In this document: positions 15,316 through 32,847 of the stretch, one piece after another | Layout of the letters: each line of letters begins with the position of its first letter | Position numbering within the stretch: position 1 is the stretch's first letter | Source of the DNA: an uncultured bacterium | Lineage (GTDB): Bacteria > Omnitrophota > Omnitrophia > Omnitrophales > JACQLI01 | Length of the DNA stretch: 64,000 nucleotides | Assembly: GCA_964372875.1 (NCBI GenBank) | Contig: CAYJTB010000001.1 | Coordinates: forward strand, 27,860 to 91,859 | Direction of reading: 5' to 3' | Program-made: the position numbers and the translations under genes | The notes under the pieces: model-generated | What the model was told of the DNA's origin: nothing | What the model saw: only the letters and a program-made list of their open reading frames with translations | Databases searched by the model: none

Positions 15316-18300
15316 ATGACCCTACGCGCGAAAAATTTTTATCTACGCACTGTCGCAGCTTTCACCGCAATCATTTTTTGCTGGAATAGCCTTGCTTGGC
15401 CGCTTCCCGAGGTTGCGGTTCCCCAGGCCGGCAAAACTTTCGATCTCATTCCAAAAGAACTCGGAACCGTCGATGAATACGAACTGCCGGACGCTTCACA
15501 TTCCGCACCCTTTGTCATACATATTCAAGATCTCCACGCAGCACCCGAAGCTCAAGAAAAAATCCTGGACATTCTTAAATTTTTACATTCAAAAAAGAAA
15601 CTTCTCGTAGCGGTCGAAGGAGCCGCCGGAACGCTTCATCCTGAGTATTTAGATTTCTTTCCGCAATACCCGCGTGTCACAAACGCACTCGTTCAAGATT
15701 TGGTAAGTGAGAGCATGCTTACAGGGCCGGCGTTATTCGCATGGGAGAGGTATGAGAGTAAGCCGTCATTGCACCCGTCATTGCGAGGACGTAAGTCCGA
15801 AGCAATCTCAAATCCTAGATTGCTTCGTCGGGCCTTTGGCCCTCCTCACAATGACAATAGCGTCCAATTCATAGGCGTCGAGACGCCGCGTCTTTATCGC
15901 GAAAACCTTAAAGCCTATCGCGATTTTTTCCAGGATGAAGAAAAAAATCAGCAGGATTTGAAATCTTTCCAAACCTCATTGGAATCGGCCCAAACGAAGA
16001 TTTTCAATCCTGATTTGAGGAAATTTGTCCAAGAAGTCCAGAGACGTAAAGATGGAAAGTTTCAATCGGGAAAGGCCTCGCCCGATCTTGCGGCTTACAT
16101 TCGCTTTCTCGCGGATTCAAGCCGAGATCATTTGGGAGTTGATCTAAGAGATAAATTCGAACAGATCCGTTTTCCCAATCTAACCCGCATTCTTTTCTTG
16201 ATGGAATTCGAATCAAAAATCACTGCTCACCAGCGCCGGGTTCTGCATTCTGAAATTGAATCCAAAAAACTTTTTGATGAAATCACACTTCTCGAAACAA
16301 GACTGCGGCAAATACTGGTTAAAAAGCCGGAAGAAACAAAACTTCTTGAGATCCTTGATGATTTCAAGTTGCTTGAGAAGTTATTCCATTTGGAACTGAC
16401 TCGCGAGGAATATTACCAAGTCGTCAACAGGGTTTTGGAAATCAATCCGTCGAATTTACATCAGCGTTTGGCAACCATTGCTGAGATTGCTTCGACCTCG
16501 TCTGAAATGTTGTCTCGCAATGACGCCGATTACGAAACTGCTCTGCGTTTTTACCGCTTAGCCATTCGCAGAGACAAAGCCCTTCTTGAAAATGCCTTGC
16601 GAGAGGCAGCTAAAACGGAGAACTCGTCTCAAGAAAAACCACTCATCGTTCTTGTTACCGGCGGTTTTCACACTTCAGGGGTGAGCGAGCTTCTCAAAGA
16701 AAAGAAAATTCCTTACGCCGTCGTCACGCCTGCCTTAGCAAAAACCAAAGCCAATCAAGACCAATATCACAAACTGATGTCCGGCAAAATGTTCGCCAAA
16801 GAAGCCTCAAGCGCTTCGCCCAAGAATAACAATCTGGTGTGGGCGCAGATTCTTACAGCAAGAGATCGGTACCCGAGCCTCAATTCCGACGAGGATCAGC
16901 AAAAAATATTTTCCCACGCGACTGAAAAGTCCGGCGAGTATTTTCGAAAATTCTATCCCCAAATCTCCGAACCCAAACTGCAAGAACTTTTATCTCGCCC
17001 CGCCGGATTCTTTTCGCAAATCTCCCGTTCCGAATTGCAAAGTAGGAGCCAGATTACGAATTCGGCCATCGATGGCCGAATTGGCGGGAAAAGGGTACTG
17101 CCTTCACGTTTTCCGCGCTCGGAAGTGCGGGCGGTAGAACAGCGATTAGAAGTCAGTGGTCAGAAGACAGAAGGCTGGAGTTCAAAGATAGGAAAAATTA
17201 TCAGGAATGGCAGCGATTTTGGACTATCGAGGGTTTTCCAGCGTAGTCAGGCGAAGAATTATCGAATTCCAAGCCGCTTAGAAAAATCTCGAGGTGAAAG
17301 AATAGAAATCTCTTTAAAGGTTTTCATCGATAGCAGATCGTGGTCTCCTGTGACAATGATCGTTGCTTTAGCTGAAAGAGCGCATTCCAGCACGGCATCA
17401 TCGTCCGGGTCACGGCAGGCCTTTACCTTTGTTTTAGGTTTGACTATCAAAGCTTTCATATGGATCAATGAAATCATTTCTTCAAGCATTTCAGGCGTGA
17501 TCCATTTCTTGAGTTTAGGTTTTTCCAGTGAGCGAAGAAAGTCTTCCAGTAAGGCCGGAGATAAAGCCGCAATGAACTTGTCTTCTTCCAGGGATTCCAG
17601 AATCGAACGGCAAACGCCCGGAAAGGCGAGTCCGCTCACCAGCACATTCACATCAAGAACGACCCGACGCATACCGTTCCTGCCGGGCTTGCTTGACCAG
17701 ATTCAGAAGCTCTTTTCGGCTGAGAGGGTGTTTCTTTCGGCTTTTATCAACTTTGCGGGTCAGAGAACGGAAGCGTTCTCCCCAGGTCTTATGTTCAAGA
17801 CGACGGATCAGGGTAATGCGGTCACGGGATTTCAATTGATTGATCATGCGCTCAATTTGTTGAATGTCTACTTCCACGGCAATCTTAGGCATAGGATTTT
17901 ATCCTCCTCTTCGAATCAGTATAATTTATCGGCCTTGGCGGATCAAAATCAAAACATTTCTTCCGTTAAGCCTTCTAAGCAAAGTTCGACAGAACCGAGC
18001 CGAAGGGCCGCTTCCGGCCCCGAGAGCCGTCAGTCTCCGATCCTAAGCGTCGATAGACCCGGAGGGGCCCGTGGGGAGGTGCGGGCAAAAGAACAGAGGT
18101 CAGAAGTCAGAGAGCAGAGGATAGAGGTCATAAGTCAGAGATCAGAAGGAAAAATTACTTCGAGTGGCGGCGATTTTGGTAGCGTTCGATCAGGTACATC
18201 ACGCCCCAGGCAAGAAATATCAAAACCAAAACAAGAGACACGGTTATCACGTTTTATTTACCCCTTTTCCGAATCTCTTGGGCAAGCCATCCAAGAAATA

Positions 18301-21300
18301 AGAATCATGATGGCTACAATTATAGAGAGAACAGCCTTGGCCTTCAATGAAGTTTTCCAAATGTTTTCGCTCACCACGAGGGCTGCTAATACAAGGCTCA
18401 CCGCCCTCATGATCCCATCAGCAAACAAATTCCGTCTTTTAGATGGAAAAAGGGTTTTCATCTCAATGCTTCAAGCGCCGCAACCTAACACAGGATTAAT
18501 TTTAAGTCAAATATTATTTTTAGAATATGAAATATCCCGCCGCTCGGAGGTGCGGGAATACATCTCGGATTGGACGGTCTCGACCTTGGAAACGAAACAG
18601 CCGGTTTTGGCGGCGGCATTTTCAACGGACGGGAAGATTTTGGCCGCGGGCGCAAGAAACAACGTTCATCTGACCAACGGAGACCTTCGGAAATGGTCCG
18701 TGGAATTTAGGGCCCACCGCAACGAGATTGCAAAACTTATTTCTTTTCAAAGAGGAAACAGGAATTTTTTCGCCACAGCCAGCAGAATCGGCTCGATCAG
18801 CCTATGGAATTCAAACGGCGGGCTGATCCGGCGGCTGGAGCAGCTTAATCCGGAGGATTTCCAACCTGTGTTAGGGTTATCCGTTTCTAAAAATGGAGAT
18901 TGGCTGGCAGCCACGGACATGGATGTAATGAAGATCTACGATCTTACGGGAATGAGTTCCCCTAAAACAATTCCCATCACGGATCAAAGTCGCAATCATT
19001 TCGTTCAATTTTCTCCCGATGGGACGAGCATCGCCTCCACTTATTACGGCGAAATCCGAATCGAGGATATCAAAACCGGAAAACTCCGCGCGAACCTTCA
19101 TCACGAAGCTTCTCTTAAGAAGTCCATGGATACGTCAGCCTTGGCCTTTTCCAAAGGCGATGATGTCGCCGCGGCCTCCACCGACGGAAAAATCAGGATC
19201 TGGAGATGGAAAGGGGAAAGGCAGCCTCAGGTTTTAGATTTTTTGTCACCAGCCCGCGAAGCAAGCCACCTCATCTTTTCACCTAATGGAAAACGTCTCG
19301 CCGCGTCTACGGCAGATCAGATCGAAATATGGAAACTTAATGGAAAAGTGTGGCGTCATGAAGAAACAATCTATCCGCATCTGGACGCCGTGACAGAAAT
19401 TTTATTTTCACCGGATGCAAAACGGTTTATGGCCGCAGGCATTTGGCACGGAAGCGGGAGAGTCCGAATTTGGTCGAAGGAAACGCCGGCAAGGGCCGAA
19501 GTGCGGACCGACGGCATCCCGACAACCTGGTTCCGGATTTTTAACAGGCTGGATAACCTTAACCGGGAAGTGTGGAAACAAAAAGATTTAGACATCATTG
19601 ACCTGACCAACCAATTGGAGAAAAAACTCATCAGCTTATTCGGTTCGCAGCTCCTTTATGGAATCTGGACTTGGAATACTTCAGTTCGGGAAGTACGGTT
19701 TGGCCTTAGGTCGGGGCCTTTAAGTTTTGAATTGACTGCCAACCCGCATCAGGAAATCCCGGAAAGAGAAATTAAAAGGGGATACACGGTAACAATGAAT
19801 GCGATGCTTACTTCCGCTGCGGAAAGTCAGCATGCAAAAAAATGGGGAGACAGCGAACCGGAAGAAAGGGGAGAGACTTTGCTTGAAATTCCTATTGCAG
19901 AGATCGACCGCTCCCAACCTGTTATCTATTTCGGCAGTTTCTATTTTGATACCGACAAGGAAAAGAAAGAAACGATCATCAAACAGGAAATCCTTTTCCT
20001 TCCCGGAGAGGAGAGAAATTATCAAATCTATATTTGGCATAACAACGCCCTTGAAAAAACTACCTTAGAAAAAGAAGGCGGCAGGACCTACGCGGTATGG
20101 AGAACGCCGGAAGCCGAACCTTCCCTTTCGTTTCAATATGTGGCACTGCATGATGCCCAAGGCAAAGACCTGGGCGAAATAAGCCGGCTCATTCTGAAAG
20201 CCGGAAACTCGGAAACTTACAGGAACAACCTTCAATTTCTTTACGGTCCTATTTGGAGAGACGAAACGTCGAGTTTTTCTCATGGTAGCAGAACTTCCGT
20301 AAAACCATCGGTTTTTGAAGACCTTATCTCTGCTGCGCCGGGCAAAAGGATCGCTGCGCTGCTGGGTCTAGCGATTGAATATCAATATGTCCCGGAAGGC
20401 CAAGTATTCAGCCGGATGCTGCTTACCGAATTGGAAAAATTGGAGGGCCTGCCGTACGGACGAATCGCAGCGCTTCGAGAAATTGCGGAAATGAGTCCCG
20501 AGGAAGCCCATGAAAGATTTAAAGATCCCTACGACCAGCCCAGCGCGATCCCGGCCGTCATGACCCTCGTGGCCAGCCTCGCCCCGCGTCTCCTTGAAAG
20601 AATGAAAAATTGGGATCAGGAATTTTATGAAGAGCTAAAAGGGGTCCTGCAAAAACCGGATCTCAAAACTTTATTCGAGGAAGGGGAGGTCAAATTTTAT
20701 GAGGCGGATCATCTCTGGGCCGCTTCAGATAACCGATCTTTTTTCCCTGGTGTTGTCGCCTTTTCAAGGAGTAAAGACCGGCAAATCATCGTCCCAATCT
20801 ATTTCGGCAACGAACCGAAAGATGAAGACGGCAAAGTCTGGTTTAAAATCTTGGACGCCACATCGCTTGGAATCGAGAATTCAAATGCCGCCACTTACCA
20901 AGTCTACGACCACATGCTCGGGGAATTTTATAAAACACTTCATTCAGGGGAAAAACTTTATCGAGAGGGTTGGAGCATCGGCATTCCGGTCGTCCCGGGA
21001 AAGCTGGACCGGGCCGGGTTTATCCAAAAGGGACGGCATGTTCAATTTTTGGAAATGCGAAGGACCCAATCTCTAACGACGGCGACCCGGATCGGCTTGC
21101 CGGAAAATCTTGTCAAGACACAAGGGATTCTTACGGATCTTTTGAGAGAAATGAGTAAACTCGAAATTTATTTTTTTATCAGTAAGACCGGTGCAACCGA
21201 TCGGCGCATGGTGCCTGTGGATAACGTTTATGAATTTTTTTCATCCTATGCGGGGAAAAAAGGCGAGCATTGGAATGAAATCGTAAGTGAGCCCCTTCAA

Positions 21301-24300
21301 TTGACCGTGAGCTCTCCGGGTTTTAAGCGCCAGACGCTTCGGCATGCGCTTCGGATGATGCAGGAAGCGCTTCAACTTACTTATTCTTTCCCCGGCACTT
21401 TGAAAGGAAATGACCCCCACCTTTCTTTTTATCACGATAAATTAATCGAAGAGACCCAACTTTTAAAAACATCGGATCAAACCGGAAAGTGGGCCCATGT
21501 CGAATTCGAAATCGCAAGCAGCCATTTTGAAATGCCGGATCATTGGGATCAGCCCGCCGAAAATTCGCTGCGTCAAAGAATTCAGGCGTTGCGCGAGGCA
21601 TTAGAAATTCCCTTTGTCCTTATGTTAAAAGCACCTTCCGGCGCCAAGGATCCTTATCACATCGAGCCGGTGGGAAACCTTCACCAGCGGCTTCCTTATT
21701 TTGTTCTCAAAGATGATTTCTTGAAAAATCCTCACGATCCGCGTTTTCCCTATTTTTCAAAAGGCGCTCAACTCAGTTTCGGACTTGAAGCACCCATGGA
21801 TTCGGCAAGATTGGAACAAGTTAGAAATATTCTGGTTGCAAGTCTTGAAGGCCGGATGTCGGCAGCTACCCTTAAGCGTGCCATTGAAGTGACGATGCAT
21901 CAGTGGCAAAGAGAAGACTCCTTCTTTTCCGAATCCCGCTCCGAGGCACGCCGTGTGCCTCGAACGCTTGCGGTGCACCCGGTGCGGTTGGCACCGGGTA
22001 CTCCGCTATACCCGGACCGGTCGGGTCCGGGTGTTGCGGTGCAGAGTCATTGGAACTCTGCCCGTTCAGAAGTTCGAACGGAGAAGTCAGAACGTCTAAC
22101 TCGTTCCAATGCAGGCGAATTACTCAAACCGCGCAGATACCTCAAGAATAAAATCTACGGAATTGGGCGCATTACCGCTGTGGAAGGAAAATTCGGGGGA
22201 AAAGATCCTCAAGGCTCCGTCGAGGTCGCTTTTTTAAATAAACACGGATTCGAAGAAACGAAAGAATTTTCCACCTGGTCACTTTTTCAATTGCCGGAGC
22301 AAAATCCCGAAGAAGCTTTCTTTTCCGTTACCAGGCAAGAAATCGAAGATTTCAAGAATCAAAAAAGACAAGGTCAAGCAGCTTATAAAGAAGAAATAGA
22401 TAAAAAACGCATAGCCCAACGGGAGGGCAGGCAATGGATGGAAGCACAAAGCCCCACATTTTCTCTCTACGATTCGCCTTTCAGCGCAAGAGCCGGAAGG
22501 CCCCTGGCCGCAGATTATAGAAAATTGATGCAAGGAATCCAAGACCGGGCACAGGGCGAGTATCACTTGGGCAGCGCCTCCATCGTGGAACGAAAAATTT
22601 TGTTTGAAATGCTGGGCACTCGCCTGATCCCTAAGACGAACCAATCGGAAACCACCCTTCGGATCAACTTAGGCCGGAGAAAAAAGGAATTCGCAGAGAA
22701 ATTGAAAACGATTTTAGATGAAACGGGCGGGCTAAGCGCCCGGGCCGTGAGCGAGGCGGAAGAGAAAATCATGTCTCCCAAAGATAAGTCCCGTGCGCTT
22801 TCAAGCGAATGGCTGAAATTCCGGGATCCTGTTACCGGTAAATTTGCGACCGAAAAAGATATCAAACGCTGGATCCAGAATGCCATTCCGATCGTTGAAA
22901 GAATCTTAGAATATGAAGTAAAACTTCTCAAATTAGAAAAACAAATTCAAATTCATCCGCGGCCTCTTGCGCGATCCGAAGTAAGGGCCGCTGAAAGTTC
23001 TCCCACAAAGAAGGTCGCATTTTTTAACCTCAGGACCGCGGACGATTCATCCATTGTTTTGCCGCAAAGGATGTCCTATCTTCCCGTCGAGCAGCGGTTG
23101 CCTGACTATAGCGCCTGGCGGATTCGAGTGGGAAGGGAATCGGGAAATTTGCACGCATTTTTGAGAGATGTCCTTGGCCCACGCTGGCATTGGAATGTCA
23201 AAGGAGAAACTAAGGCTTATTTTCTTTATAAAAGTCTCCCGAAGAAATTCAAACAATTTATTGGTAAACGCAAACCGCCGACAGGTTTTGATATGGAAGC
23301 GCTTGGACTTTTGGTGGTTAATCGAAGCGACATTTTTTACATTCCGATGGAAGAAACTGTGAATGAATCCGTGGTAACGGTGTTAGACAAAAATGACCGG
23401 GACGCGATCAATGAATTTATAAGCCATCATGCAATGATCCAAACGGTGCCGCAGAATATCCGGATCTTTCCTCCCGTTCGATATGAGAGCGTCAAGTTTG
23501 GATTGGGAGAGGATCCCGTGTCGAGTCCCAAGCCCGGCTCCATCGAAGTTGTTTATCACCCCAGGCTCATGGTCAATGATCTTGGCAAGGCAGATAAAGA
23601 AATTATTTTCGAAACCAGTTTCGACTTAACACAATTAAGGCCCCGGAAAAAGATTACGGCTGAACTTGAGGGAAGATTCTATCAAGAGTTAAAGTCCAGG
23701 CTGCGCAATACTTGGCAGATCCGCATAGGCAACCGGACCGTGGAAATGCCTCGGGCAAAAGATTTGCCGGCTAAAGTTCAAGACGTGGAAGAAATTTTGT
23801 TGCCGGGGAATAACCGTAAAACGGCGTCTTTACATTTCAATGATGCGGTTTCGTTCTATCTCGACGGAATTTTGATGCGCTCCAATGTGCCTGTACCCAA
23901 GGATATTCACGCCTGGATTTTTTGGAAAACACGGATTCGTTTTAACGATCAGGAAATCTCGGTTGAAACGACCGAAGGCAACAATGTATTAACTTATCGA
24001 ACAGATGAAACCGGTGAACATCTGCGGGTCAATGGCGAACCGACAGACAATAGTGTTTTGCAAAACATGATTCGTCAGATGGGCTCCGCTTTTTCAATCT
24101 TGGCCTTTCAGATGGCGCGCGATCCCGAACAAACGGATTATCTTCGCGAATCCGGCAAAGAAACGATTGATGATGAATTCGACCAATGGCTCGGCCGTTC
24201 TGAGGTGCGGGAAGAAGGACAGCCTGCACAAAATGGGAATGGCCACGCTATCCAGAAAAAGCAAAGAGGCCGCGGGTTCAGGACTAAAGAAGAAGCCTTG

Positions 24301-27300
24301 CAAGCCCTTGCCGAAAGACAGGCAAAAGGTCTTTCCAGTGATCCAAAATCCCTTCAAAGGCATTTAGCCGAAGGCGGCAACCCTACTTTGCTCACCTTCA
24401 TTTATCGATGGAATCAAAAGCACCCGGAAGAACCCATTGAAATGAAATTGTTGCCTACCCGAACCCACAAGTACGAATCCAAAGGAGAAATTATTGAAGC
24501 GCTGGAAAAAAGGCGGCTGGAAAAAGGAGAATCAGCCAATTATCGAATGCAATTACGCCTTCATATAGAAGAAGGCGGCGATCGTACATTGTATCAAGCG
24601 GTTCTGCGTTGGAATCATGATCATCCAGAGGATTTGATCAATCTTCCTTTGGATCCCCATGTGGCGCATGGTCAATTGGGAAAATACCAGACCAAACAAG
24701 ACGGCTTGAATACTTTGAGTGAAAGGAAAAAACAAGGTCTGGGAAATTCAACCAGCGATCTCAGGCAAACTAAATCGGATGGGGGGGATTGGCCTCTTCT
24801 TGTTTTTATTCGCCATTGGAATAAGAAGCATCCGAAGGATCGCATTGCGCTGGAGAATGCTGACCAAAACTTCAACCGCCTGAGTCCTGTTGCGGTCTGG
24901 CATTCCCAGACGCAGGATTTCAAGACGACCGATCAAAAAAGAACCGAATGGTGGCGGGCCTTGCAGGAAGAGGCGGATCACGAAGCTGGAAAAAGGCTGG
25001 TCGAGTCTTTTATTCCTTCAGTCAATGAGATTGCCCAAAGGTTAAGCGGGGGGAGAGATTCGCATTATGAAGCGGATTTAATCCAAAACGGAAATATGAT
25101 TGTCCTTGAGACGATCTATCCCGAGCGTAAAGAAGACCAGTGGAATCCGAGCCGCGGGGTTTCCATGACCGAATTTGTCGAGACCCGTTTAAAGAAAGAG
25201 ATGAGGCACCGGACATTGCAAGAGATACGTTCCAGCGGGAGATTTTCCATCGACGAGCCCTACCGTTTTTCCAAAGGCAGAGAAAAGGAATGGCAGGTTC
25301 CCAGTTATGACGCCCAACCGCAGGAAGTCCGAATTAACAACTTGGCTGATGAGAGGGACAAGCAATCGGGCCTTCCCGTGATTTTGTTTGAGGAAAAACA
25401 TCAAATCGCCCGCGAGATCGGAAAATGGTTAATCAAAAAAGGTTTTCTTAAACAGGTCAAGCAGGAAGGGATTCAGAACCTTGCCGTTTCAATGATCGGA
25501 AGCCTGGGAGTGCTCGGATCGGCAGTCAGAGATAAAAGCGATCTTAATTTGATGGTTGTTACCGACGCAAATGAGTCGCAGGCTGAAGCCCTCGCAGAAA
25601 AACTTGCGCAGTGGATCGGGGGCCGATATCACGAGCCGCAGGATTCGGAGCCTATCCGCATCTCCGTAGGAAAAGAAGGTGATTATGAGCAAGCCATAGC
25701 AGACGGAAACGGCTTCATTAGCTTACTTCAAAAACACAAGGTGGGCACAGACCCCATCAAAGGAATTGCAAGCGTTGAAGTGATTGGAATTCCCGACGAA
25801 GACAACTCGTTTTCCGAAGACTCTCTTACCCGGCAAAAAACGCGGGCGGCTTTTCACCTGGCCTTCCAAGATCCCCGGTTAGCCGAGCAGGCAATCAATG
25901 GGATCCTTGTCCTTGAAAATGCCAAGGGGGCCGCAGAGCGTCTTGCCCAAAAATTGCCGAGCGATCAGGAAAACCTTTTCGGTTATTATGAAAAATTTCT
26001 TGCCAAACAAGCCGCCAATCTTCGCAAGTTGCAGGAATCTTCCATTGACTCAAAAGCAAGGGCCGAGGTGCACCCGAATCCGACCGATTCGGGTACTCCT
26101 CAGTCCTCGCCCGATCAGGCGAGGGCCGAGGTGCGTTCTTCTTTGCCGGAGCAACGGGCGGAAAAGAAGTTAGAAACAAGAAAGTTGGAAATTGGAGCAG
26201 GAATCAGCGGGCTTAGCGGCCGCGTTGAAACATCTAATGGGCGTGTTTTTTCCGGAAGTGATCGATTGCCAATAAAGTCAACGAGATCGCCGCAAAAATC
26301 AGAATGGCAAGGACAGCCGTCATTTAGTCTTCCTCCTTTGAGGAGCTTGCCGCAAAAATCAAGCCCAAATAAAAGCATATCACGAGTCCTCCTAGAACGA
26401 CAAGCCGCCATTTCAGGGAGAGTTTTAGGAAAAGCTCTCCTCCCAGAACTCCTGCTAATAGGACCAAAATCACATGCTGAAACAACTTTGCCAGCCAGTC
26501 CCTCCGGGCCGTTGTCAGGAATATACTTTTCACAAAATAAAATATATAGCAATATCAATTCAGAGTTAAGCGATTTTTCCCGCTCCGATGGTTCGACAAG
26601 CTCACCATCGGTCCTGAGCAAGGCCGAAGGCCGCGTCGAACGCGCCGAGGTGCACCCGAATCCGACCGATTCGGGTACTCCTCCGCACTCACGCCCAACC
26701 GGCGTGAGTACTGAGGTGTCCCTGGCGGCGCCGCCAGGGGCTCCTCCGTCCTCGCCTGAACGGGCGAGGGCCGAGGTGCGGGCAAGCGTTGAAGAAATAA
26801 TCAGGAAGCAGATGCTTTCTGGAGATCTGAAGGCCTTTGAAAAGAATTTCGAATCTTACGACCGTGAAAAGGCCTTTGAACTTTTAAATAGCATTTCGAA
26901 AATTGCCAAGGAAATTTCAGAAAGGATCCGCAAAGGAGAAGAAGAACTGATGGTAGCTGCAAACAATGGCCAAAAAATGCAAGAAATCATTGACGCGGCT
27001 AAAATCTTGGAAAATTTCCCAAATGATAAACAAATACATGGTGTCCACCTATCAGCTATTATAAATTTACAGGAAATCTTCAATCTTACACCAAAAGCAT
27101 TGCCAAGATATCGCAATCTCTTAGAAGCTATTGTTAAACACGCGTCAAAAAAAGAACAACCTCACCAGGCAGCAGCTGAAATTATCGAGAGCTTTGAAGG
27201 AGAACAGCACGCTGATTCCCAACAAGATCAATTTCAAAGGAACGAAGCACTGGAATTTTTAACCCTAGATCTGGATGAAAAAGTTTTTAAAGAAACAGTA

Positions 27301-28719
27301 ATAAAAAATCATTTTCTGACCGCGCTTCATCATTTCATTTGGGAACACAGCGACTTTGAAGATGCGAAGAATTTAGCCAGAGAACTCGGTAACTTGAGCC
27401 TAATCAGTTCTTTGTTGGGTGAGCCCCTCAGTAAAAGACAGGCCGCTTTTTATAAGCGCGCACTTTTGAGCTCTGACCGCACGCAGCAGAAGATCGCGCT
27501 TGGCTTCTTCGAGACTTTCCCTGATCTTGAAAAAATGGACTGGAAAGAGGAAGTCGTTGGTAAACTTAAAGAAATCGTAATGGATGAATCCGAAGATTCT
27601 GAATTTAGAAAATATGCCTTTGAAGCGTTGACAAACAATATTCTTCTTATAGAGCCAGCCTTTTTGGCGCCTTATTTTAAAGAGCCGCGCAGCCAACGGT
27701 TTCGAATCATTTCTTCGGATAAAAAAGGCGCTCGGATTTTATTTTCGGTTCTTCAGAAGAAATTTGGGTCGCCTTTAAAGGACCCGCCCCTTTTTAAAAA
27801 AAGTTCCGAGTCCATCATTTTATCAGGAGAATTTACGACAGGTCTGAGAAATGCTGCCATGTTGATCCGATTTGTAAGGCAGGCCTACGGCCGGGAGATA
27901 TCCTTTGATGAGTCCCGCGGCTTGCTTAAAGAGATGAAAAAGAAACAAGACAGATCCCGGCGTTCCGAAATACGGAGTGAAAGCTTGGATTCGACGTGGG
28001 AGTTGAGGGAGGATGCGAACAAAGGAAAGCTTGCGGAACTTGGAAAACAATTTGCGCCGATGATTGAGAGTCTTTGGAAACGCTCCGAGGTCAGGCACAG
28101 GCTTGCGACGGACGGATTTTTGAATCTTTCAAAGCTGATTGAAATTCCCAAAGCCGAAGCGGCTGAACCTGCGATTGTAGCTGCGCTTTTGATCCGTGCA
28201 GAACAATCCCAAACCGGAACGCCGGCTTTGGACAAACATTTGCAAGTGTGGCAGTCGCGCATGGGAATCAGTTCGGTTGCTAAAGAAAATGAAGTCGTAA
28301 TCCTCTTAGAAGGTGCGGCGTTTAAACTCGGACTCTTGGCTGCGATCGACGGAATTAGCCCGGCAGCTCCGAAGATCGGCGTTGTGGCGCCCAAGGCTTA
28401 CCATTCTTTAGTGGAAGAAGTCAGAAGCGGTCTTAGAACCGGGCAAGAACTGATCGAAGGGGAGAAGCTTCCCGAAATTTTAAATCAAATTGCTCAGATG
28501 AAACAGAAGCCAAGCCGCTTAACGATTTGGGCTTCGAAGGAAGACTCGTTCTTAACAGCAGCGTTCATCAAACGTTTTCTTAAAGATCCAAACCTGAATG
28601 TAGAAGTAAAGACCGTGACGCAGCGCGATCTTGACCGCGCCAACGCGTCTCACCCCGGCTTTGCGGAACGTATCAAGAACTTCCTCGCCGCCGTCAAATC
28701 CCTCAGCATTTCCGCTTAA
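15316..28719 (+). CDS. giant modular ORF, 4,467 codons, function unknown
   Basis: Single uninterrupted frame; AGGAAAG RBS; N-terminal TM helix; protein-like composition in most modules; junction peptide conserved with synonymous codon variation. Caveat: three segments look non-coding on this strand. Confidence 0.7.
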   Translation: MTLRAKNFYLRTVAAFTAIIFCWNSLAWPLPEVAVPQAGKTFDLIPKELGTVDEYELPDASHSAPFVIHIQDLHAAPEAQEKILDILKFLHSKKKLLVAVEGAAGTLHPEYLDFFPQYPRVTNALVQDLVSESMLTGPALFAWERYESKPSLHPSLRGRKSEAISNPRLLRRAFGPPHNDNSVQFIGVETPRLYRENLKAYRDFFQDEEKNQQDLKSFQTSLESAQTKIFNPDLRKFVQEVQRRKDGKFQSGKASPDLAAYIRFLADSSRDHLGVDLRDKFEQIRFPNLTRILFLMEFESKITAHQRRVLHSEIESKKLFDEITLLETRLRQILVKKPEETKLLEILDDFKLLEKLFHLELTREEYYQVVNRVLEINPSNLHQRLATIAEIASTSSEMLSRNDADYETALRFYRLAIRRDKALLENALREAAKTENSSQEKPLIVLVTGGFHTSGVSELLKEKKIPYAVVTPALAKTKANQDQYHKLMSGKMFAKEASSASPKNNNLVWAQILTARDRYPSLNSDEDQQKIFSHATEKSGEYFRKFYPQISEPKLQELLSRPAGFFSQISRSELQSRSQITNSAIDGRIGGKRVLPSRFPRSEVRAVEQRLEVSGQKTEGWSSKIGKIIRNGSDFGLSRVFQRSQAKNYRIPSRLEKSRGERIEISLKVFIDSRSWSPVTMIVALAERAHSSTASSSGSRQAFTFVLGLTIKAFIWINEIISSSISGVIHFLSLGFSSERRKSSSKAGDKAAMNLSSSRDSRIERQTPGKASPLTSTFTSRTTRRIPFLPGLLDQIQKLFSAERVFLSAFINFAGQRTEAFSPGLMFKTTDQGNAVTGFQLIDHALNLLNVYFHGNLRHRILSSSSNQYNLSALADQNQNISSVKPSKQSSTEPSRRAASGPESRQSPILSVDRPGGARGEVRAKEQRSEVREQRIEVISQRSEGKITSSGGDFGSVRSGTSRPRQEISKPKQETRLSRFIYPFSESLGQAIQEIRIMMATIIERTALAFNEVFQMFSLTTRAANTRLTALMIPSANKFRLLDGKRVFISMLQAPQPNTGLILSQILFLEYEISRRSEVREYISDWTVSTLETKQPVLAAAFSTDGKILAAGARNNVHLTNGDLRKWSVEFRAHRNEIAKLISFQRGNRNFFATASRIGSISLWNSNGGLIRRLEQLNPEDFQPVLGLSVSKNGDWLAATDMDVMKIYDLTGMSSPKTIPITDQSRNHFVQFSPDGTSIASTYYGEIRIEDIKTGKLRANLHHEASLKKSMDTSALAFSKGDDVAAASTDGKIRIWRWKGERQPQVLDFLSPAREASHLIFSPNGKRLAASTADQIEIWKLNGKVWRHEETIYPHLDAVTEILFSPDAKRFMAAGIWHGSGRVRIWSKETPARAEVRTDGIPTTWFRIFNRLDNLNREVWKQKDLDIIDLTNQLEKKLISLFGSQLLYGIWTWNTSVREVRFGLRSGPLSFELTANPHQEIPEREIKRGYTVTMNAMLTSAAESQHAKKWGDSEPEERGETLLEIPIAEIDRSQPVIYFGSFYFDTDKEKKETIIKQEILFLPGEERNYQIYIWHNNALEKTTLEKEGGRTYAVWRTPEAEPSLSFQYVALHDAQGKDLGEISRLILKAGNSETYRNNLQFLYGPIWRDETSSFSHGSRTSVKPSVFEDLISAAPGKRIAALLGLAIEYQYVPEGQVFSRMLLTELEKLEGLPYGRIAALREIAEMSPEEAHERFKDPYDQPSAIPAVMTLVASLAPRLLERMKNWDQEFYEELKGVLQKPDLKTLFEEGEVKFYEADHLWAASDNRSFFPGVVAFSRSKDRQIIVPIYFGNEPKDEDGKVWFKILDATSLGIENSNAATYQVYDHMLGEFYKTLHSGEKLYREGWSIGIPVVPGKLDRAGFIQKGRHVQFLEMRRTQSLTTATRIGLPENLVKTQGILTDLLREMSKLEIYFFISKTGATDRRMVPVDNVYEFFSSYAGKKGEHWNEIVSEPLQLTVSSPGFKRQTLRHALRMMQEALQLTYSFPGTLKGNDPHLSFYHDKLIEETQLLKTSDQTGKWAHVEFEIASSHFEMPDHWDQPAENSLRQRIQALREALEIPFVLMLKAPSGAKDPYHIEPVGNLHQRLPYFVLKDDFLKNPHDPRFPYFSKGAQLSFGLEAPMDSARLEQVRNILVASLEGRMSAATLKRAIEVTMHQWQREDSFFSESRSEARRVPRTLAVHPVRLAPGTPLYPDRSGPGVAVQSHWNSARSEVRTEKSERLTRSNAGELLKPRRYLKNKIYGIGRITAVEGKFGGKDPQGSVEVAFLNKHGFEETKEFSTWSLFQLPEQNPEEAFFSVTRQEIEDFKNQKRQGQAAYKEEIDKKRIAQREGRQWMEAQSPTFSLYDSPFSARAGRPLAADYRKLMQGIQDRAQGEYHLGSASIVERKILFEMLGTRLIPKTNQSETTLRINLGRRKKEFAEKLKTILDETGGLSARAVSEAEEKIMSPKDKSRALSSEWLKFRDPVTGKFATEKDIKRWIQNAIPIVERILEYEVKLLKLEKQIQIHPRPLARSEVRAAESSPTKKVAFFNLRTADDSSIVLPQRMSYLPVEQRLPDYSAWRIRVGRESGNLHAFLRDVLGPRWHWNVKGETKAYFLYKSLPKKFKQFIGKRKPPTGFDMEALGLLVVNRSDIFYIPMEETVNESVVTVLDKNDRDAINEFISHHAMIQTVPQNIRIFPPVRYESVKFGLGEDPVSSPKPGSIEVVYHPRLMVNDLGKADKEIIFETSFDLTQLRPRKKITAELEGRFYQELKSRLRNTWQIRIGNRTVEMPRAKDLPAKVQDVEEILLPGNNRKTASLHFNDAVSFYLDGILMRSNVPVPKDIHAWIFWKTRIRFNDQEISVETTEGNNVLTYRTDETGEHLRVNGEPTDNSVLQNMIRQMGSAFSILAFQMARDPEQTDYLRESGKETIDDEFDQWLGRSEVREEGQPAQNGNGHAIQKKQRGRGFRTKEEALQALAERQAKGLSSDPKSLQRHLAEGGNPTLLTFIYRWNQKHPEEPIEMKLLPTRTHKYESKGEIIEALEKRRLEKGESANYRMQLRLHIEEGGDRTLYQAVLRWNHDHPEDLINLPLDPHVAHGQLGKYQTKQDGLNTLSERKKQGLGNSTSDLRQTKSDGGDWPLLVFIRHWNKKHPKDRIALENADQNFNRLSPVAVWHSQTQDFKTTDQKRTEWWRALQEEADHEAGKRLVESFIPSVNEIAQRLSGGRDSHYEADLIQNGNMIVLETIYPERKEDQWNPSRGVSMTEFVETRLKKEMRHRTLQEIRSSGRFSIDEPYRFSKGREKEWQVPSYDAQPQEVRINNLADERDKQSGLPVILFEEKHQIAREIGKWLIKKGFLKQVKQEGIQNLAVSMIGSLGVLGSAVRDKSDLNLMVVTDANESQAEALAEKLAQWIGGRYHEPQDSEPIRISVGKEGDYEQAIADGNGFISLLQKHKVGTDPIKGIASVEVIGIPDEDNSFSEDSLTRQKTRAAFHLAFQDPRLAEQAINGILVLENAKGAAERLAQKLPSDQENLFGYYEKFLAKQAANLRKLQESSIDSKARAEVHPNPTDSGTPQSSPDQARAEVRSSLPEQRAEKKLETRKLEIGAGISGLSGRVETSNGRVFSGSDRLPIKSTRSPQKSEWQGQPSFSLPPLRSLPQKSSPNKSISRVLLERQAAISGRVLGKALLPELLLIGPKSHAETTLPASPSGPLSGIYFSQNKIYSNINSELSDFSRSDGSTSSPSVLSKAEGRVERAEVHPNPTDSGTPPHSRPTGVSTEVSLAAPPGAPPSSPERARAEVRASVEEIIRKQMLSGDLKAFEKNFESYDREKAFELLNSISKIAKEISERIRKGEEELMVAANNGQKMQEIIDAAKILENFPNDKQIHGVHLSAIINLQEIFNLTPKALPRYRNLLEAIVKHASKKEQPHQAAAEIIESFEGEQHADSQQDQFQRNEALEFLTLDLDEKVFKETVIKNHFLTALHHFIWEHSDFEDAKNLARELGNLSLISSLLGEPLSKRQAAFYKRALLSSDRTQQKIALGFFETFPDLEKMDWKEEVVGKLKEIVMDESEDSEFRKYAFEALTNNILLIEPAFLAPYFKEPRSQRFRIISSDKKGARILFSVLQKKFGSPLKDPPLFKKSSESIILSGEFTTGLRNAAMLIRFVRQAYGREISFDESRGLLKEMKKKQDRSRRSEIRSESLDSTWELREDANKGKLAELGKQFAPMIESLWKRSEVRHRLATDGFLNLSKLIEIPKAEAAEPAIVAALLIRAEQSQTGTPALDKHLQVWQSRMGISSVAKENEVVILLEGAAFKLGLLAAIDGISPAAPKIGVVAPKAYHSLVEEVRSGLRTGQELIEGEKLPEILNQIAQMKQKPSRLTIWASKEDSFLTAAFIKRFLKDPNLNVEVKTVTQRDLDRANASHPGFAERIKNFLAAVKSLSISA
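15765..15855. mobile_element. MITE-like element inserted in-frame in the giant ORF
   Basis: GTCATTGCACCC GTCATTGCGAGG...AAGCAATC..GATTGCTTCG...CCTCACAATGAC; translated SLRGRKSEAISNPRLLRRAFGPPHND. Confidence 0.6.
16475..16524. repeat. possible degenerate/short copy of the same MITE family
   Basis: CCATTGCTGAGATTGCTTCG...TCTCGCAATGAC, translated ...MLSRND; left terminus is weak. Confidence 0.3.
17059..17082. repeat. 24-bp perfect palindrome
   Basis: AATTCGGCCATC|GATGGCCGAATT, 34 nt upstream of the first RSEVR junction. Confidence 0.9.
17259..17672 (-). CDS. PIN-domain ribonuclease toxin (PIN_3/VapC-like)
   Basis: VVLDVNVLVSGL..., CRDPDDDAVLECALSAKATIIVTGDHDLL: acidic PIN residues in the canonical order; 20-nt overlap with the upstream small gene. 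Confidence 0.9.
   Translation of the reverse strand: MRRVVLDVNVLVSGLAFPGVCRSILESLEEDKFIAALSPALLEDFLRSLEKPKLKKWITPEMLEEMISLIHMKALIVKPKTKVKACRDPDDDAVLECALSAKATIIVTGDHDLLSMKTFKEISILSPRDFSKRLGIR
17653..17892 (-). CDS. putative antitoxin of the PIN toxin
   Basis: 79-aa basic protein directly upstream of and overlapping the PIN gene; strong RBS; family not recognised. Confidence 0.6.
   Translation of the reverse strand: MPKIAVEVDIQQIERMINQLKSRDRITLIRRLEHKTWGERFRSLTRKVDKSRKKHPLSRKELLNLVKQARQERYASGRS
18070..18556 (-). mobile_element. antisense cassette 2: junction, 3'-flank repeat, small membrane protein
   Basis: Same build as cassette 1; bounded by junctions at 18070 and 18541; minus-strand TTGACT -35-like box upstream of ATG 18461. 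Confidence 0.4.
18258..18461 (-). CDS. small two-TM membrane protein (paralog of 26324..26533)
   Basis: 67 aa with two hydrophobic helices. Shares MK(T/S)(L/I)F...RR..(F/L)A...LVL.A.V...SLK pattern with the other cassette protein. Confidence 0.5.
   Translation of the reverse strand: MKTLFPSKRRNLFADGIMRAVSLVLAALVVSENIWKTSLKAKAVLSIIVAIMILISWMACPRDSEKG
18556..19491 (+). other. WD40-type beta-propeller module of the giant ORF
   Basis: Repeated units such as FSTDGKILAAG, ATASRIGSISLWN, FSPDGTSIAS, ASTDGKIRIWRW, FSPNGKRLAAS..IEIWK, FSPDAKRFMAAG..RVRIWS. Confidence 0.8.
21937..22080. repeat. in-ORF array of GC-rich hairpins at a module junction (copy a)
   Basis: CGAGGCAC/GTGCCTCG; CCCGGTGC/GCACCGGG; ACCCGGACC/GGTCCGGGT; CAGAGT/ACTCTG; CCGTTC/GAACGG; flanked by RSEAR and RSEVR codons. 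Confidence 0.65.
24274..24857 (+). repeat. three tandem ~65-aa protein repeats inside the giant ORF
   Basis: GFRTKEEALQALAERQAKGL...GGNPTLLTFIYRWNQKHPEEPI / KYESKGEIIEALEKRRLEKG...GGDRTLYQAVLRWNHDHPEDLI / KYQTKQDGLNTLSERKKQGL...GGDWPLLVFIRHWNKKHPKDRI. Confidence 0.6.
25060..25230 (+). other. sigma-70 region-2-like stretch in the giant ORF
   Basis: EADLIQNGNMIVLETIYPERKEDQWNPSRGVSMTEFVETRLKKEM resembles DLIQEGNIGLMKAV..FDP.RG..FSTYA.WWIR. Confidence 0.35.
25483..25575 (+). other. nucleotidyltransferase (Pol-beta/MNT-like) motif in the giant ORF
   Basis: SMIGSLGVLGSAVRDKSDLNLMVVTD matches the G-S-x(n)-G...D-x-D minimal NTase pattern. Confidence 0.45.
26059..26136. repeat. in-ORF hairpin element (copy b)
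   Basis: AGGGCCGAGGTGCAC CCGAATC cgacc GATTCGG GTACTCCT...CCTCGCC cgatca GGCGAGG GCCGAGGTGCGT; 39 bp (26062-26100) are repeated perfectly at 26644-26682. Confidence 0.7.
26324..26533 (-). CDS. small two-TM membrane protein (paralog of 18258..18461)
   Basis: 69 aa, GTG start, two hydrophobic helices, acidic C-terminus (SSSKEED); A/T-rich TATATT box upstream on the minus strand. Confidence 0.5.
   Translation of the reverse strand: MKSIFLTTARRDWLAKLFQHVILVLLAGVLGGELFLKLSLKWRLVVLGGLVICFYLGLIFAASSSKEED
26641..26781. repeat. in-ORF hairpin element (copy c, expanded to four hairpins)
   Basis: CCCGAATC/GATTCGGG; ACTCACGCC/GGCGTGAGT; CCCTGGCGG/CCGCCAGGG; CCTCGCC/GGCGAGG. Confidence 0.7.
26782..27960 (+). 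other. alpha-helical (HEAT/ARM-like) module of the giant ORF
   Basis: Helix-rich composition with a recurrent ~40-aa helical periodicity; judged by eye only. Confidence 0.3.
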
Positions 28720-28807: not shown

Positions 28808-29017
28808 ATGACACGAGTGACAGTTTCCCCAAAATATCAAATCGTGATCCCTAAAGAAATTAGGGAAAAGTTGGATATTCGGTGCGGACAGAAGATGGCC
28901 GTCGTAACAAGAGGGGAATGGATTATGCTGGTTCCCGATCTGCCTTTGAAACATTATCGGGGGTTTTTGAAAGGTGTGAGTTCAGAGGGGGTTCGTGACC
29001 GAAGGGACCGGTTTTGA
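28808..29017 (+). CDS. vapB: AbrB/SpoVT-type antitoxin
   Basis: MTRVTVSPKYQIVIPKEIREKLDIRCGQKMAVV: looped-hinge-helix AbrB fold motif; 4-nt overlap with the PIN gene. Confidence 0.85.
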   Translation: MTRVTVSPKYQIVIPKEIREKLDIRCGQKMAVVTRGEWIMLVPDLPLKHYRGFLKGVSSEGVRDRRDRF

Positions 29018-29391
29018 CGGTCATCGATTCAAGCGGTTGGATTGAGTTTTTTAGCGAAGGTCCACTTGCCTCCCATTATGAAAAGCATTTGGGGTCTTTG
29101 TCTGAGATTGTCGTTCCTACCATTGTGCTTTATGAAGTCTACAAGAAATATAAGAGAGAAAGCGGAGAGCAAGGCGCTTTGACCGCGGTGTTTCATATGC
29201 AAAAGTGCCGGATCGTACCTTTAACAGAAGAATTGAGTTTGGAGGCGGCGGATTTAAGCCTTCAATACGGACTTGCCATGGCCGATGCGATTGTTTATGC
29301 GTCGGCACTTCAGGAAAAAGCAAAGTTAATCACCAGCGATAAAGCCTTAAAAAATCTGCCTCAAGTGGTTTACTACAGTAAATCGTCCTAA
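29014..29391 (+). CDS. vapC: PIN-domain toxin
   Basis: MTVIDSSGWIEFF..., LSLEAADLS...MADAIVYASA...LITSD: PIN acidic residues. Confidence 0.85.
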   Translation: MTVIDSSGWIEFFSEGPLASHYEKHLGSLSEIVVPTIVLYEVYKKYKRESGEQGALTAVFHMQKCRIVPLTEELSLEAADLSLQYGLAMADAIVYASALQEKAKLITSDKALKNLPQVVYYSKSS

Positions 29392-29397: not shown

Positions 29398-30312
29398 TTG
29401 AGTTCCACGCAAATCGCCCTTCTTAAAAAATACGGTCTTGAAGTCCGTGGATTTCGCGGCCAGCATCTTTTGGTCGATCCCAACATTCAACGAAAGATCG
29501 TGGAGTTAGTCGCTCCCAAACCAGGTGAGTGGATCGTTGAGATCGGGCCGGGCCTGGGTGCGCTCACGACTGAGATTTTGGCGGACGGCGCGTCGGTCCT
29601 TGCGATTGAAAAAGACAAACGCTTCTGCGAGATCCTGGAAGGGGAGTTCGGCATCGATTACAAAGGAAAACTCCTGATCGAAAATGCGGATGTTCTCAAG
29701 ACGGATTTAAAAAAATTACTCAAATCGTCGTTACGAGCCCCAAAGAGGCGAAGCAACCTAAGCACGAAGACTGCTTCGGCGCCGCCTCGCAATGACCGGA
29801 TCAAAGTCATCTCGAACCTTCCTTACTATATAACTTCACCTGTGCTTTTCTGGCTGATCTCCAATCGTGCATCTGTGGAAAAAGCGGTTTTGATGATGCA
29901 GGCTGAAGTCGCGGACCGTTTGCTCGCCCAGCCGGGAGATAAAGATTATAGCCGGCTTACCTTGGGAGTCCGGTATTACGCCGAAGTCCACCGTGCTTTT
30001 GAAGTTTCCCGCAATTGTTTTACTCCGAGGCCCGATGTCGATTCAACGGTCGTGACGATCGATTTTCACCCGCCGTCCGCATTCCCAAAAGGAATCGACG
30101 AGGCATTTCTTTTCCATCTCATTCAAGTAGCCTTCGGTGCCCGGCGAAAAACCCTACTCAATCGTCTTACGCAAGATTCAAAAGTAGGTCGCCCTCGTTC
30201 CCAGCTCTTAGAAATTTTTCACAAGCTCGGCATCCCCGAAATGGCCCGCGCTGAAGAGCTCCTCCTCAAAGACTTCATCTCATTGACCGAATTTCTTCAA
30301 CCTAAACATTAA
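29398..30312 (+). CDS. rsmA: 16S rRNA (adenine1518/1519-N6)-dimethyltransferase, carrying an in-frame repeat insertion
   Basis: GQHLLVDPNI, VEIGPGLGALT SAM motif, SNLPYYITSP; TTG start. Confidence 0.9.
   Translation: MSSTQIALLKKYGLEVRGFRGQHLLVDPNIQRKIVELVAPKPGEWIVEIGPGLGALTTEILADGASVLAIEKDKRFCEILEGEFGIDYKGKLLIENADVLKTDLKKLLKSSLRAPKRRSNLSTKTASAPPRNDRIKVISNLPYYITSPVLFWLISNRASVEKAVLMMQAEVADRLLAQPGDKDYSRLTLGVRYYAEVHRAFEVSRNCFTPRPDVDSTVVTIDFHPPSAFPKGIDEAFLFHLIQVAFGARRKTLLNRLTQDSKVGRPRSQLLEIFHKLGIPEMARAEELLLKDFISLTEFLQPKH
29727..29796. mobile_element. MITE-like element in-frame in rsmA
   Basis: GTCGTTACGAG...GAAGCAACC..CTGCTTCGG...CCTCGCAATGAC, translated SSLRAPKRRSNLSTKTASAPPRND, placed just before the NLPY motif. 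Confidence 0.6.
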
Positions 30313-30328: not shown

Positions 30329-30425
30329 GGACACGAGTCTCGTCGTCACTCGTAACGCCCCTGCGAGACAGTCCCCTTCTATATTGTTTCTTTTCAAGGA
30401 TCGGGGCAAGTCCCCGTGGGACGTC
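30329..30425 (+). repeat. structured intergenic repeat, copy R1 (left half of the ~180-bp unit)
   Basis: GGACACGAGTCTCGTCG.CACTCG.AACG.CCCTGCGAGACAGTCCCCTTCTATATTGTTTCTTTTCAAGGATCGGG is near-identical to the reverse complement of 32770-32847. Confidence 0.8.
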
Positions 30426-30548: not shown

Positions 30549-30690
30549 GAGACGGTCCCCTTCATTAATTTTTATTTTCAAGGATCGGGACAGCCCCCTT
30601 GTGGGGCGGCGTAGCGGCCGTTACGGAAAAATCCGGAAAAGATTTTTCCGTAGGCCCACGAGTGAGGGCGACTCCTTGTCCGTTTCTATC
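30549..30690 (+). repeat. structured intergenic repeat, copy R2
   Basis: GTCCCCTTCATTAATTTTTATTTTCAAGGATCGGGACAGCCCCCTTGTGGGGCGGCG...CGGAAAAATC cggaaaa GATTTTTCCG...CCTTGTCCGTTTC; matches the reverse complements of 32488-32574 and 32671-32770. Confidence 0.8.
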
Positions 30691-32487: not shown

Positions 32488-32574
32488 GAATCTCCGCCCC
32501 ACAAGGGGGCTGTCCCGATCCTTCAAAAGAAACATTAATGAAGGGGACCGCCTGCGTCGGACGTTCGGCCGGCG
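32488..32574 (-). repeat. structured intergenic repeat, copy R3 (inverted)
   Basis: CCGCCCCACAAGGGGGCTGTCCCGATCCTTCAAAAGAAACATTAATGAAGGGGAC is the reverse complement of the R2 core. Confidence 0.8.
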
Positions 32575-32670: not shown

Positions 32671-32847
32671 GATCGAAACGGACAAGGTGCCGGCCTCACT
32701 CGACGGGCCTTCGGAAAAATCTATTCCGGATTTTTCCGAGACGGCCCAACGCCGCCCCACAAGGGGGCTGTCCCGATCCTTGAAAAGAAACAATATAGAA
32801 GGGGACTGTCTCGCAGGGACGTTGCGAGTGGCGACGAGACTTGTGCC
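32671..32847 (-). repeat. structured intergenic repeat, copy R4 (inverted, full-length ~177 bp)
   Basis: Its reverse complement joins the R1 left half to the R2 right half, which defines the full unit. Confidence 0.8.

Follow-up and report, generated by a model that had tools for sequence, protein, structure and literature searches.

A conserved unit of three-helix repeats, a sigma-70 domain 2 and a divergent Pol-beta-fold domain within a long Omnitrophota protein

Results

The module and its open reading frame

We analyzed a stretch of 64,000 nucleotides from an uncultured bacterium (contig CAYJTB010000001.1 of assembly GCA_964372875.1), here called the window, with positions counted from its first letter. 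The segment at 24211–26058 on the forward strand encodes a conserved unit of three parts, which we refer to as the module: three-helix repeats, a sigma-70 domain 2 and a divergent Pol-beta-fold domain with a G-S loop and an Asp-x-Asn motif. It is not a separate gene. It forms part of a single open reading frame (ORF) of 13.4 kb (15316–28719) that encodes 4467 amino acids (aa). An initial annotation, made from the sequence alone, had placed the module at 24211–26058, and these coordinates are correct: they are the exact interval between two copies of a short peptide motif, at aa 2961 (24196–24210) and aa 3582 (26059–26073). The features of the module and of its host ORF are listed in Table 1.

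A coding-potential score based on codon usage, with the remaining genes of the window as training set, favored the frame of the ORF over nearly its entire length and over the full module. The exceptions are two stretches at ~17116–18500 and ~26060–26700. From the start of the module no in-frame ATG occurs for about 77 codons, and the module must therefore be translated within the long ORF.

Table 1. Features of the module and of its host open reading frame (window positions)
Feature	Position	Strand	Description and basis
Host ORF	15316..28719	+	4467 aa; signal/anchor-like N-terminus, conserved N-terminal domain, WD40 propeller (aa ~1064–1376), 14 R[SA]EV[RH] motifs
N-terminal domain	15316–17115 (aa 1–600)	+	~500 aa (aa about 10–492) behind a signal/anchor-like start; conserved at the N-terminus of long Omnitrophota proteins
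Direct repeats, ~105 nt	17121–17225 and 18075–18182		Around the first non-coding-like stretch; each starts with the RSEVR-coding core
PIN-domain toxin gene	17262–17672	-	Pfam PIN_3, E 8e-18
79-aa ORF upstream of the PIN gene	17656–17892	-	ORF
Two small two-helix membrane-protein-like ORFs (67 and 69 aa)	18261–18461 and 26327–26533	-	One per non-coding-like stretch
R-S-E-V-R junction directly 5' of the module	24196..24210	+	Motif search
Basic lead-in (EEGQPAQNGNGHAIQKKQRGRG...)	24211..24279	+	Probably disordered; low predicted local distance difference test (pLDDT) values at the start of model 2
Repeat 1 core	24280..24414	+	Three-helix unit, signature Y/F..K.....L..R....L......GG[DN]..L; pairwise alignment, hidden Markov model (HMM), structure model
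Repeat 2 core	24472..24615	+	Pairwise alignment, HMM, structure model
Repeat 3 core	24685..24822	+	Pairwise alignment, HMM, structure model
Sigma-70 domain 2 (regions 1.2–2.4)	24940..25230	+	aa 3209–3305; profile of homologous segments
Region 2.2-like motif DLIQNGN	25075–25095	+	aa 3254–3260; sequence
Linker	25231..25353	+	Low model confidence; conserved S-[IL]-[DN]-x-P patch (SIDEP at 25246–25260); structure model, alignment
Pol-beta-fold nucleotidyltransferase (NTase)-like domain	25354..26031	+	aa 3347–3572; predicted fold, family alignment
Key residues of the NTase-like domain	25396–25398, 25498–25503, 25540–25542, 25546–25548, 25777–25779	+	K3361, G3395-S3396, D3409, N3411 and E3488, in this order; family alignment
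R-A-E-V-H / R-A-E-V-R junction 3' of the module	26059..26135	+	Divided by a palindromic element of 63 nt (two hairpins, in frame) with the direct repeat GCCGAGGTGC at its ends
Palindromic element, 63 nt	26062–26124		Two strong hairpins, in frame; z -3.7
Palindromic element, 126 nt	26644–26769		Four strong hairpins, in frame; z -7.1, -97.5 kcal/mol

Sigma-70 domain 2

Taken alone, the window sequence gave weak NCBIfam matches to SigB, sigma-32 and WhiG (E-values of 3e-3 to 1e-2) and a match to a sigma factor in the PDB at E 0.8. A profile of 24 homologous segments (profile A2) was compared with the PDB and matched sigma-F (1l0o_C) at E 2.7e-8 and sigma-K at 3.3e-8, followed by SigA, FliA, SigI and RpoS down to 1e-4. 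All alignments span regions 1.2–2.4. Because these profile matches are decisive, the segment that had initially been described as sigma region-2-like is a genuine sigma-70 domain 2. Curated models detect it poorly: the best NCBIfam scores were 15–17 bits (top value 17.2) against cut-offs of 241–343, and Pfam Sigma70_r2 was not listed. Neither sigma domain 3 nor domain 4 (Sigma70_r4) was detected in the ORF with Pfam and NCBIfam, and the region past domain 2 is predicted to fold as an NTase.

In true sigma factors it is mainly through region 2.2 that the β' clamp helices of RNA polymerase are contacted, regions 2.3 and 2.4 melt and read the -10 element, and domain 4 (the helix-turn-helix (HTH) of regions 4.1–4.2) binds the -35 element and the β flap. 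We aligned the module by eye with Escherichia coli sigma-70 and use the E. coli numbering. In this alignment the region 2.2 signature is retained (DLIQNGN as compared to DLIQEGN in E. coli). At the positions of W433, W434, Q437 and T440, none of which is conserved across the family, the module has T, R, K and R. Among the compared -10 residues, an aromatic side chain is retained only at the position of Y430 (35 of 41 copies).

NTase-like domain

The C-terminal part of the module, about 215 residues long, is a divergent Pol-beta nucleotidyltransferase fold according to the predicted structure, a fold it has in common with CD-NTases, MNT antitoxins and HalB. The initial annotation had reported a GS...DxD nucleotidyltransferase motif. 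The fold and the G-S loop are confirmed, whereas the DxD was a misreading: the sequence reads G3395-S3396-L-G-V-L-G-S-A-V-R-D-K-S-D3409-L-N3411-L-M-V-V-T-D3417 and contains no DxD. Across the family the hG[GS] loop is well kept, with G3395 in 39 and S3396 in 38 of 45 copies. The first metal-ligand position is Asp in 31 and Asn in eight of 46–47 copies, and several copies lack even this Asp (TPLRL, SAAYL, SCLSL). At the second position Asn predominates (39/46) and Glu occurs only twice; the metal-binding carboxylate pair of the [DE]-h-[DE]-h pattern is incomplete. This change from Asp to Asn argues for a two-metal catalysis that would be weak, altered or absent.

Other residues are strongly conserved. 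Lys3361 is invariant (45/45 copies), and position 3488, on a predicted strand, is Glu in 38 and Asp in four of 47 copies. Further such positions are G3398, G3401, A3403, G3452-K3453, Y3457, G3477, G3483, R3510, H3514, N3528, E3534-S3535 and G3538. About 20 polar positions (among them the G-S loop, an invariant Lys and Glu/Arg/His/Asn residues) are retained across copies that are only 25–40% identical, and the conservation of so many polar residues argues for a real ligand or active site. NCBIfam gave only scattered matches to this family, all with E > 0.01.

Helical repeats

The N-terminal part of the module contains three tandem repeats, which the initial annotation had placed at 24274–24857. 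The cores that we delimited agree with this. Pairwise local alignments of the three units score 78–122, compared to ~23 ± 4.5 for shuffled sequences (z = 13–21; 0 of 500 shuffles), and their W-N-x-x-H-P endings lie at aa 3032, 3099 and 3168 of the ORF. When an HMM built from these three units was iterated on homologues, it recovered 160 copies from 34 proteins, at most 36 of them in a single protein. We name these units GG[DN] repeats after their consensus Y-P-T-K-E-S-x-x-x-A-L-x-x-R ... L ... G-G-D-x-x-L-L-x-A-x-R-R-F-G. The core comprises ~45 residues and recurs with a period of 56–67 residues; its ending is W-N-x-x-H-P in the window and its closest relatives and R-F-G-I in others. AlphaFold predicts three helices per repeat with pLDDT values above 90.

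The cores are basic on average, with a net charge of +2.4 per 44 residues, and 75% of the copies are positive. A comparison of the repeat profile with Pfam gave no family match, and the best E-value against the PDB was 0.24. Nucleic-acid binding by these basic three-helix units, in line with the earlier description of the repeats as nucleic-acid-binding-like, is plausible, but they match no known DNA-binding family.

Two candidate relationships were rejected. A Pfam match of repeat 1 to Arm-DNA-bind_4 (E 2.8e-4), present in one of 59 repeat copies, we regard as a coincidence of a short motif. A derivation of the GG[DN] repeats as degenerate versions of the ordinary HTH units found in relatives was dismissed at an hhalign probability of 1.3%.

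Relatives and conservation of the architecture

An exhaustive HMMER scan of 1.84 billion representative proteins (E ≤ 1e-3) returned only 49 proteins (clusters), almost all of them 1–7 thousand residues long. Ten are named by organism: nine belong to Candidatus Omnitrophota and the tenth, P0007, is labelled as a deltaproteobacterial metagenome-assembled genome. Their source names include "helix-turn-helix domain-containing protein" and "sigma-70 family RNA polymerase sigma factor, partial" as well as names taken from other fused enzymes. No relative was found by word-indexed homology searches with the module or the family alignment, by scanning species-representative genomes with the module, or in a viral structure library and viral contigs.

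The order of repeat(s), sigma domain 2, a linker of ~40–60 residues and the NTase-like domain is constant in nearly all relatives, and so is the spacing from the start of the sigma domain to the start of the NTase-like domain (~160–170 residues). Proteins carry one to three modules, with three in P0001. Few residues come after the NTase-like domain (at most 260 in 29 of 47 copies and at most 60 in about 16, some of which are fragments), and the module is therefore typically the C-terminal end.

The module also occurs in stand-alone genes, as had been suggested for checking, although with arrays of HTH units in the place of multiple GG[DN] repeats: proteins of at least 736 residues exist that have four to seven HTH units in front. 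The protein P0032 (736 aa), encoded by a complete gene on its contig, consists of four ordinary HTH units, one GG[DN] repeat, a sigma domain 2 and an NTase-like domain. At the locus L031, a gene of 422 codons with seven HTH units overlaps by 50 nt a gene for a 545-aa protein with the remaining domains.

The N-terminal domain of the window protein and the module occur together in the relatives P0004, P0029, P0034 and P0053. P0006 and P0010 have the N-terminal domain, and in the sequences at hand the module is detected only in part. Since both are joined in one ORF across genomes, the joining is conserved. The closest full-length relative is P0053, with a complete gene for 3527 residues on a 317-kb contig. 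There (locus L033, ENA contig k141_2363561, 1–26584) it lies between two long ORFs of >3082 and >1780 residues, both without a Pfam match; thus long ORFs stand in tandem in that genome. Another module-bearing homologue, P0012, contains an intein splicing domain near its N-terminus (aa 93–466; Pfam Intein_splicing, E 8.5e-24). The name of an IMG entry suggested a fusion of KsgA to a module-bearing ORF in relatives, which found no support by BLAST.

Junction motif and stop-free inserts

The peptide motif that borders the module, R-[SAG]-E-[VI]-[RH], occurs in 14 copies in the frame of the ORF, located at its module boundaries: at aa 601, 919, 928, 1076, 1393, 2250, 2553, 2961, 3582, 3603, 3776, 3818, 4216 and 4256 (nucleotide starts 17116, 18070, 18097, 18541, 19492, 22063, 22972, 24196, 26059, 26122, 26641, 26767, 27961 and 28081). 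The form R[SA]EVR is absent from the other frames and genes of the window. Only five loose variants with I for V lie outside the frame of the ORF, of which four are in another frame or on the opposite strand. In the nearest relatives R-S-E-L-R or a close variant is found four times in P0053, three times in P0004 and twice in P0045, where ~0.15 would be expected. The motif follows just behind the N-terminal domain in the window protein, in P0004, in P0053 and at the loci L004 and L011. At L004 a twin-arginine-like signal, S-R-R-T-F-L-Q, lies ten residues past it.

The codons of the motif differ between copies (GAG/GAA for Glu, GTG/GTT/GTA/GTC for Val, CGG/CGA/AGG for Arg), and it is apparently the peptide that is constrained. 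Possible roles of the motif are those of a processing site or of a junction signature, and the pattern fits a chain of former genes that are kept in one frame and perhaps processed at the motif. We also considered R-S-E-V-R as merely an in-frame Shine-Dalgarno sequence (GGAGGTG) and found this insufficient on its own: other codons are used at four sites or more (22063, 22972, 27961 and 28081). Among these other codings are TCAGAAGTTCGA and TCCGAAGTAAGG, and no start codon lies 3' at the right distance.

The two stretches that score poorly as coding sequence in the frame of the ORF extend from 17116 to 18540 and from 26059 to 26766, and both carry genes on the opposite strand (Table 1). The frame of the ORF contains no stop codon in either of them, where 26 and 9.8 would be expected (0 of 2000 shuffles), and the other five frames contain between 2 and 35 each. 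The two small membrane-protein-like ORFs, one in each stretch, are 31% identical over 45 residues (E 5e-4 in a single comparison).

A 10-nt direct repeat, GCCGAGGTGC, edges both palindromic elements; it corresponds to the coding core of R-A-E-V-R and looks like a target-site duplication. Ogata et al. reportedly described in 2000 the palindromic elements of Rickettsia as in-frame selfish DNA in coding genes. The structured elements found here are similar in that they lie in frame, at the junctions 3' of the module; they differ in being located exactly at the R-A-E-V-R coding core, with the 10-nt direct repeat of the core at their ends. This comparison concerns the surroundings of the module and not the module.

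N-terminal domain and genomic setting

The N-terminus of the host ORF is signal/anchor-like, and relatives have clear signal peptides. The N-terminal domain that follows was also found in P0004, P0029, P0034, P0006, P0010, P0053, L003, L004 and L011. Its invariant residues are H74 (in IQDAHAN), E101 (in VEGA), R419 and G449-G450-x-H452. It had no match in Pfam, and its profile had none in the PDB. Its residue pattern may resemble that of the TraB/Tiki/ChaN superfamily.

The genes that flank the ORF are ordinary bacterial housekeeping genes and encode SecY, Mfd, SurA, PdxA, KsgA, GatA and GatB. GatA is 81% and 78% identical to its counterparts in uncultured Omnitrophota genomes and 63–69% identical to many others of the phylum; from these identities the window is a piece of an Omnitrophota chromosome.

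Between the end of the ORF and ksgA, within 28808–29391, we observed a gene for a MazE/AbrB-type antitoxin (69 aa, Pfam MazE_antitoxin). The 125-aa ORF directly 3' of it is by appearance a putative PIN/VapC toxin, so that the two resemble a VapBC pair. An intergenic repeat of ~45–70 nt is present in four copies around gatA (30365–30408, 30549–30592, 32494–32565 and 32752–32823), two per orientation, and is probably a family of small palindromic or mobile repeats. Another element, CGCCGCCTCGCAATGAC..., is common to 29780–29815 (inside ksgA) and 36283–36318 and has the in-frame translation ...APPRND.... Similar ...RND... peptides occur in the N-terminal domain of the long ORF (aa about 150–180) and in proteins of related Omnitrophota loci (L004). 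This recurrence hints at repeat elements that have entered coding genes in frame.

Discussion

The module is a real and conserved feature whose parts come from known superfamilies. Neither the family of the repeats nor that of the Asp-x-Asn NTase-like domain has been described before, and the same is true of their fixed fusion with a sigma domain 2. The repeats and the NTase-like domain are without a matching family in Pfam, NCBIfam, PADLOC or PHROG, and a full-text literature search for the domain combination returned nothing relevant. The initial reading of the module as three kinds of parts is largely borne out, and the remark that this combination was not recognized was fair.

The closest known counterparts of the sigma-like part are domains 2 of the sigma-70 family, for example those of sigma-F, SigB and RpoS, and the factor gp55 of phage T4, which consists of domain 2 only. 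In contrast to the sigma-70 family, the module has repeats before domain 2 and an NTase-fold domain after it, lacks domains 3 and 4, and is embedded in proteins of 0.7–7 thousand residues. The nearest neighbors of the NTase-like domain are found in the Pol-beta superfamily: MNT, ANT/KNTase, the protein nucleotidylyltransferases of the GlnE/GlnD/DUF294 type, GrpB and TUTases. It has in common with Pol-beta nucleotidyltransferases the core fold, the G-S loop and, 12 residues behind this loop, an S-D pair at the start of the next strand. The conserved acidic residue E3488 on a later predicted strand is a candidate for the third carboxylate, which in this superfamily lies on a neighboring strand and near the other two in space.

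Based on the retained sequence features, we tentatively propose that the module is a DNA- or RNA polymerase-binding unit with an atypical or inactive nucleotidyltransferase. The sigma-like domain would dock on RNA polymerase via region 2.2 and would not be a promoter-opening sigma factor. A docking role is favored because region 2.2 is kept while the residues of regions 2.3 and 2.4 are lost. Contact with DNA or RNA would be made by the helical repeats, or by the ordinary HTH arrays where a short stand-alone relative carries those. For the NTase-like domain we envisage nucleotide binding, and possibly nucleotide transfer, at the polymerase or on nucleic acid; alternatively, it may be a non-catalytic nucleotide-binding domain. 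The module would be made within the 4467-aa product and, more speculatively, be released later by cleavage at the R[SA]EV[RH] motifs.

Several points weigh against this proposal. The docking claim draws on textbook knowledge of region 2.2, whose motif is weaker family-wide than in the window (the Gly is present in 25 and the Asn in 20 of 43 copies). The repeats showed no detectable link to any DNA-binding family in profile comparisons with Pfam and the PDB. The conserved Asn at the second metal ligand (39/46) is a change that normally cripples two-metal catalysis, and the NTase-like domain may be inactive. Finally, the chief obstacle to any cytoplasmic role is the signal/anchor-like N-terminus together with the clear signal peptides of relatives. 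The remainder of the protein would then lie outside the cytoplasm, and an action on the RNA polymerase of the same cell would be difficult to explain.

A different possibility is that both domains were recruited by exaptation for structural purposes or protein-protein interaction in long surface or effector proteins of Omnitrophota and act neither in transcription nor in nucleotide transfer. The conserved Asp-x-Asn in place of Asp-x-Asp, the copies without the first Asp, the signal-like N-terminus and the great length of the proteins would all suit such a dead scaffold, and published work reads most giant proteins of Omnitrophota as membrane-anchored or extracellular (10.1101/2023.11.21.568195; 10.64898/2026.06.07.730766). 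We nevertheless consider it doubtful, since the ~20 polar positions kept at 25–40% identity are typical of a ligand or active site, and the fixed order and spacing of the NTase-like domain and sigma domain 2 suggest that the two cooperate.

The module could also be a true but unusual sigma factor, one with domain 2 only like gp55. Core polymerase and DNA would then both be bound by domain 2, promoter recognition would fall to the repeats or to the HTH arrays of stand-alone relatives in place of domain 4, and the NTase-like domain would serve as a regulatory or sensor appendage. We judge this unlikely. Domains 3 and 4 were not detected, the -10 residues are replaced by T, R, K and R and are unconserved in the family, and scores of 15–17 bits stand far below the curated cut-offs of 241–343. 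Furthermore, the HTH elements are located N-terminal instead of C-terminal to domain 2, and no sigma factor is known to be embedded in a 4467-aa protein that looks exported.

The surroundings of the module allow a more far-reaching variant of the docking proposal, which we regard as rather improbable. According to it, the ORF is a deliberately stop-free polyprotein of former genes. R-[SA]-E-[VL]-R would be a processing junction that is also the landing site for palindromic elements and antisense cassettes, and the sigma/NTase unit would dock on the β' clamp helices and nucleotidylate a target. The junctions would possibly be cut by the conserved N-terminal domain. The polymerase in question might be the cell's own, for example if the nascent giant protein were coupled to the polymerase on its very long gene, or, alternatively, that of a host or prey cell, reached after export.

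The initial annotation had also drawn an analogy to anti-phage or signaling enzymes. An anti-phage or nucleotide-signaling role, either like CD-NTases in CBASS or as an MNT-like toxin-antitoxin component, could appeal to the Pol-beta fold common to CD-NTases, MNT antitoxins and HalB and to the toxin-antitoxin genes close by (the antisense PIN gene inside the ORF and the VapBC-like pair at 28808–29391). PADLOC and PHROGs, however, gave no meaningful match, and neither an operon partner nor a viral relative was found; the analogy is thus without support and such a role very improbable. Equally hard to believe is that separate genes were joined into the 13.4-kb frame by chance or in the assembly and that the module region is an ordinary gene of its own: the stretches at 17116–18540 and 26059–26766 do look non-coding and have genes on the other strand, but they lack any ORF-frame stop where 26 and 9.8 are expected, the module has no ATG of its own, and P0004, P0029, P0034 and P0053 join the N-terminal domain to the module, with the gene of P0053 complete on its 317-kb contig.

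The giant proteins of Omnitrophota have been described as concatenated multi-domain ORFs, for which proteolytic processing was suggested (West-Roberts et al. 2023, 10.1101/2023.11.21.568195; 2026 preprint 10.64898/2026.06.07.730766). The host ORF resembles them in its phylum, in being a very long ORF of unrelated domains, in its signal/anchor-like N-terminus and in the adjoining long ORFs of relatives. In contrast to the published cases, its 4467 residues are below the size classes analyzed (at least 10 or at least 30 thousand residues; at least 10 thousand in 10.64898/2026.06.07.730766). Neither 10.1101/2023.11.21.568195 nor 10.64898/2026.06.07.730766 mentions sigma domains, nucleotidyltransferases, the junction motif or antisense genes inside the ORFs.

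Two families that are absent from curated libraries, the GG[DN] three-helix repeat and the Asp-x-Asn NTase-like domain, are now defined. The junction motif, together with the stop-free, non-coding-like inserts, bears on how long ORFs arise and stay open. With 620 residues the module is an expressible entry point to the long proteins of Omnitrophota, which are otherwise almost entirely uncharacterized, in a phylum that is uncultured and possibly predatory or parasitic. A sigma domain 2, the part by which sigma factors grip RNA polymerase, that is hard-wired to an NTase-fold domain in the same arrangement in dozens of very long proteins suggests an as yet undescribed mode of action on transcription or nucleic acids.

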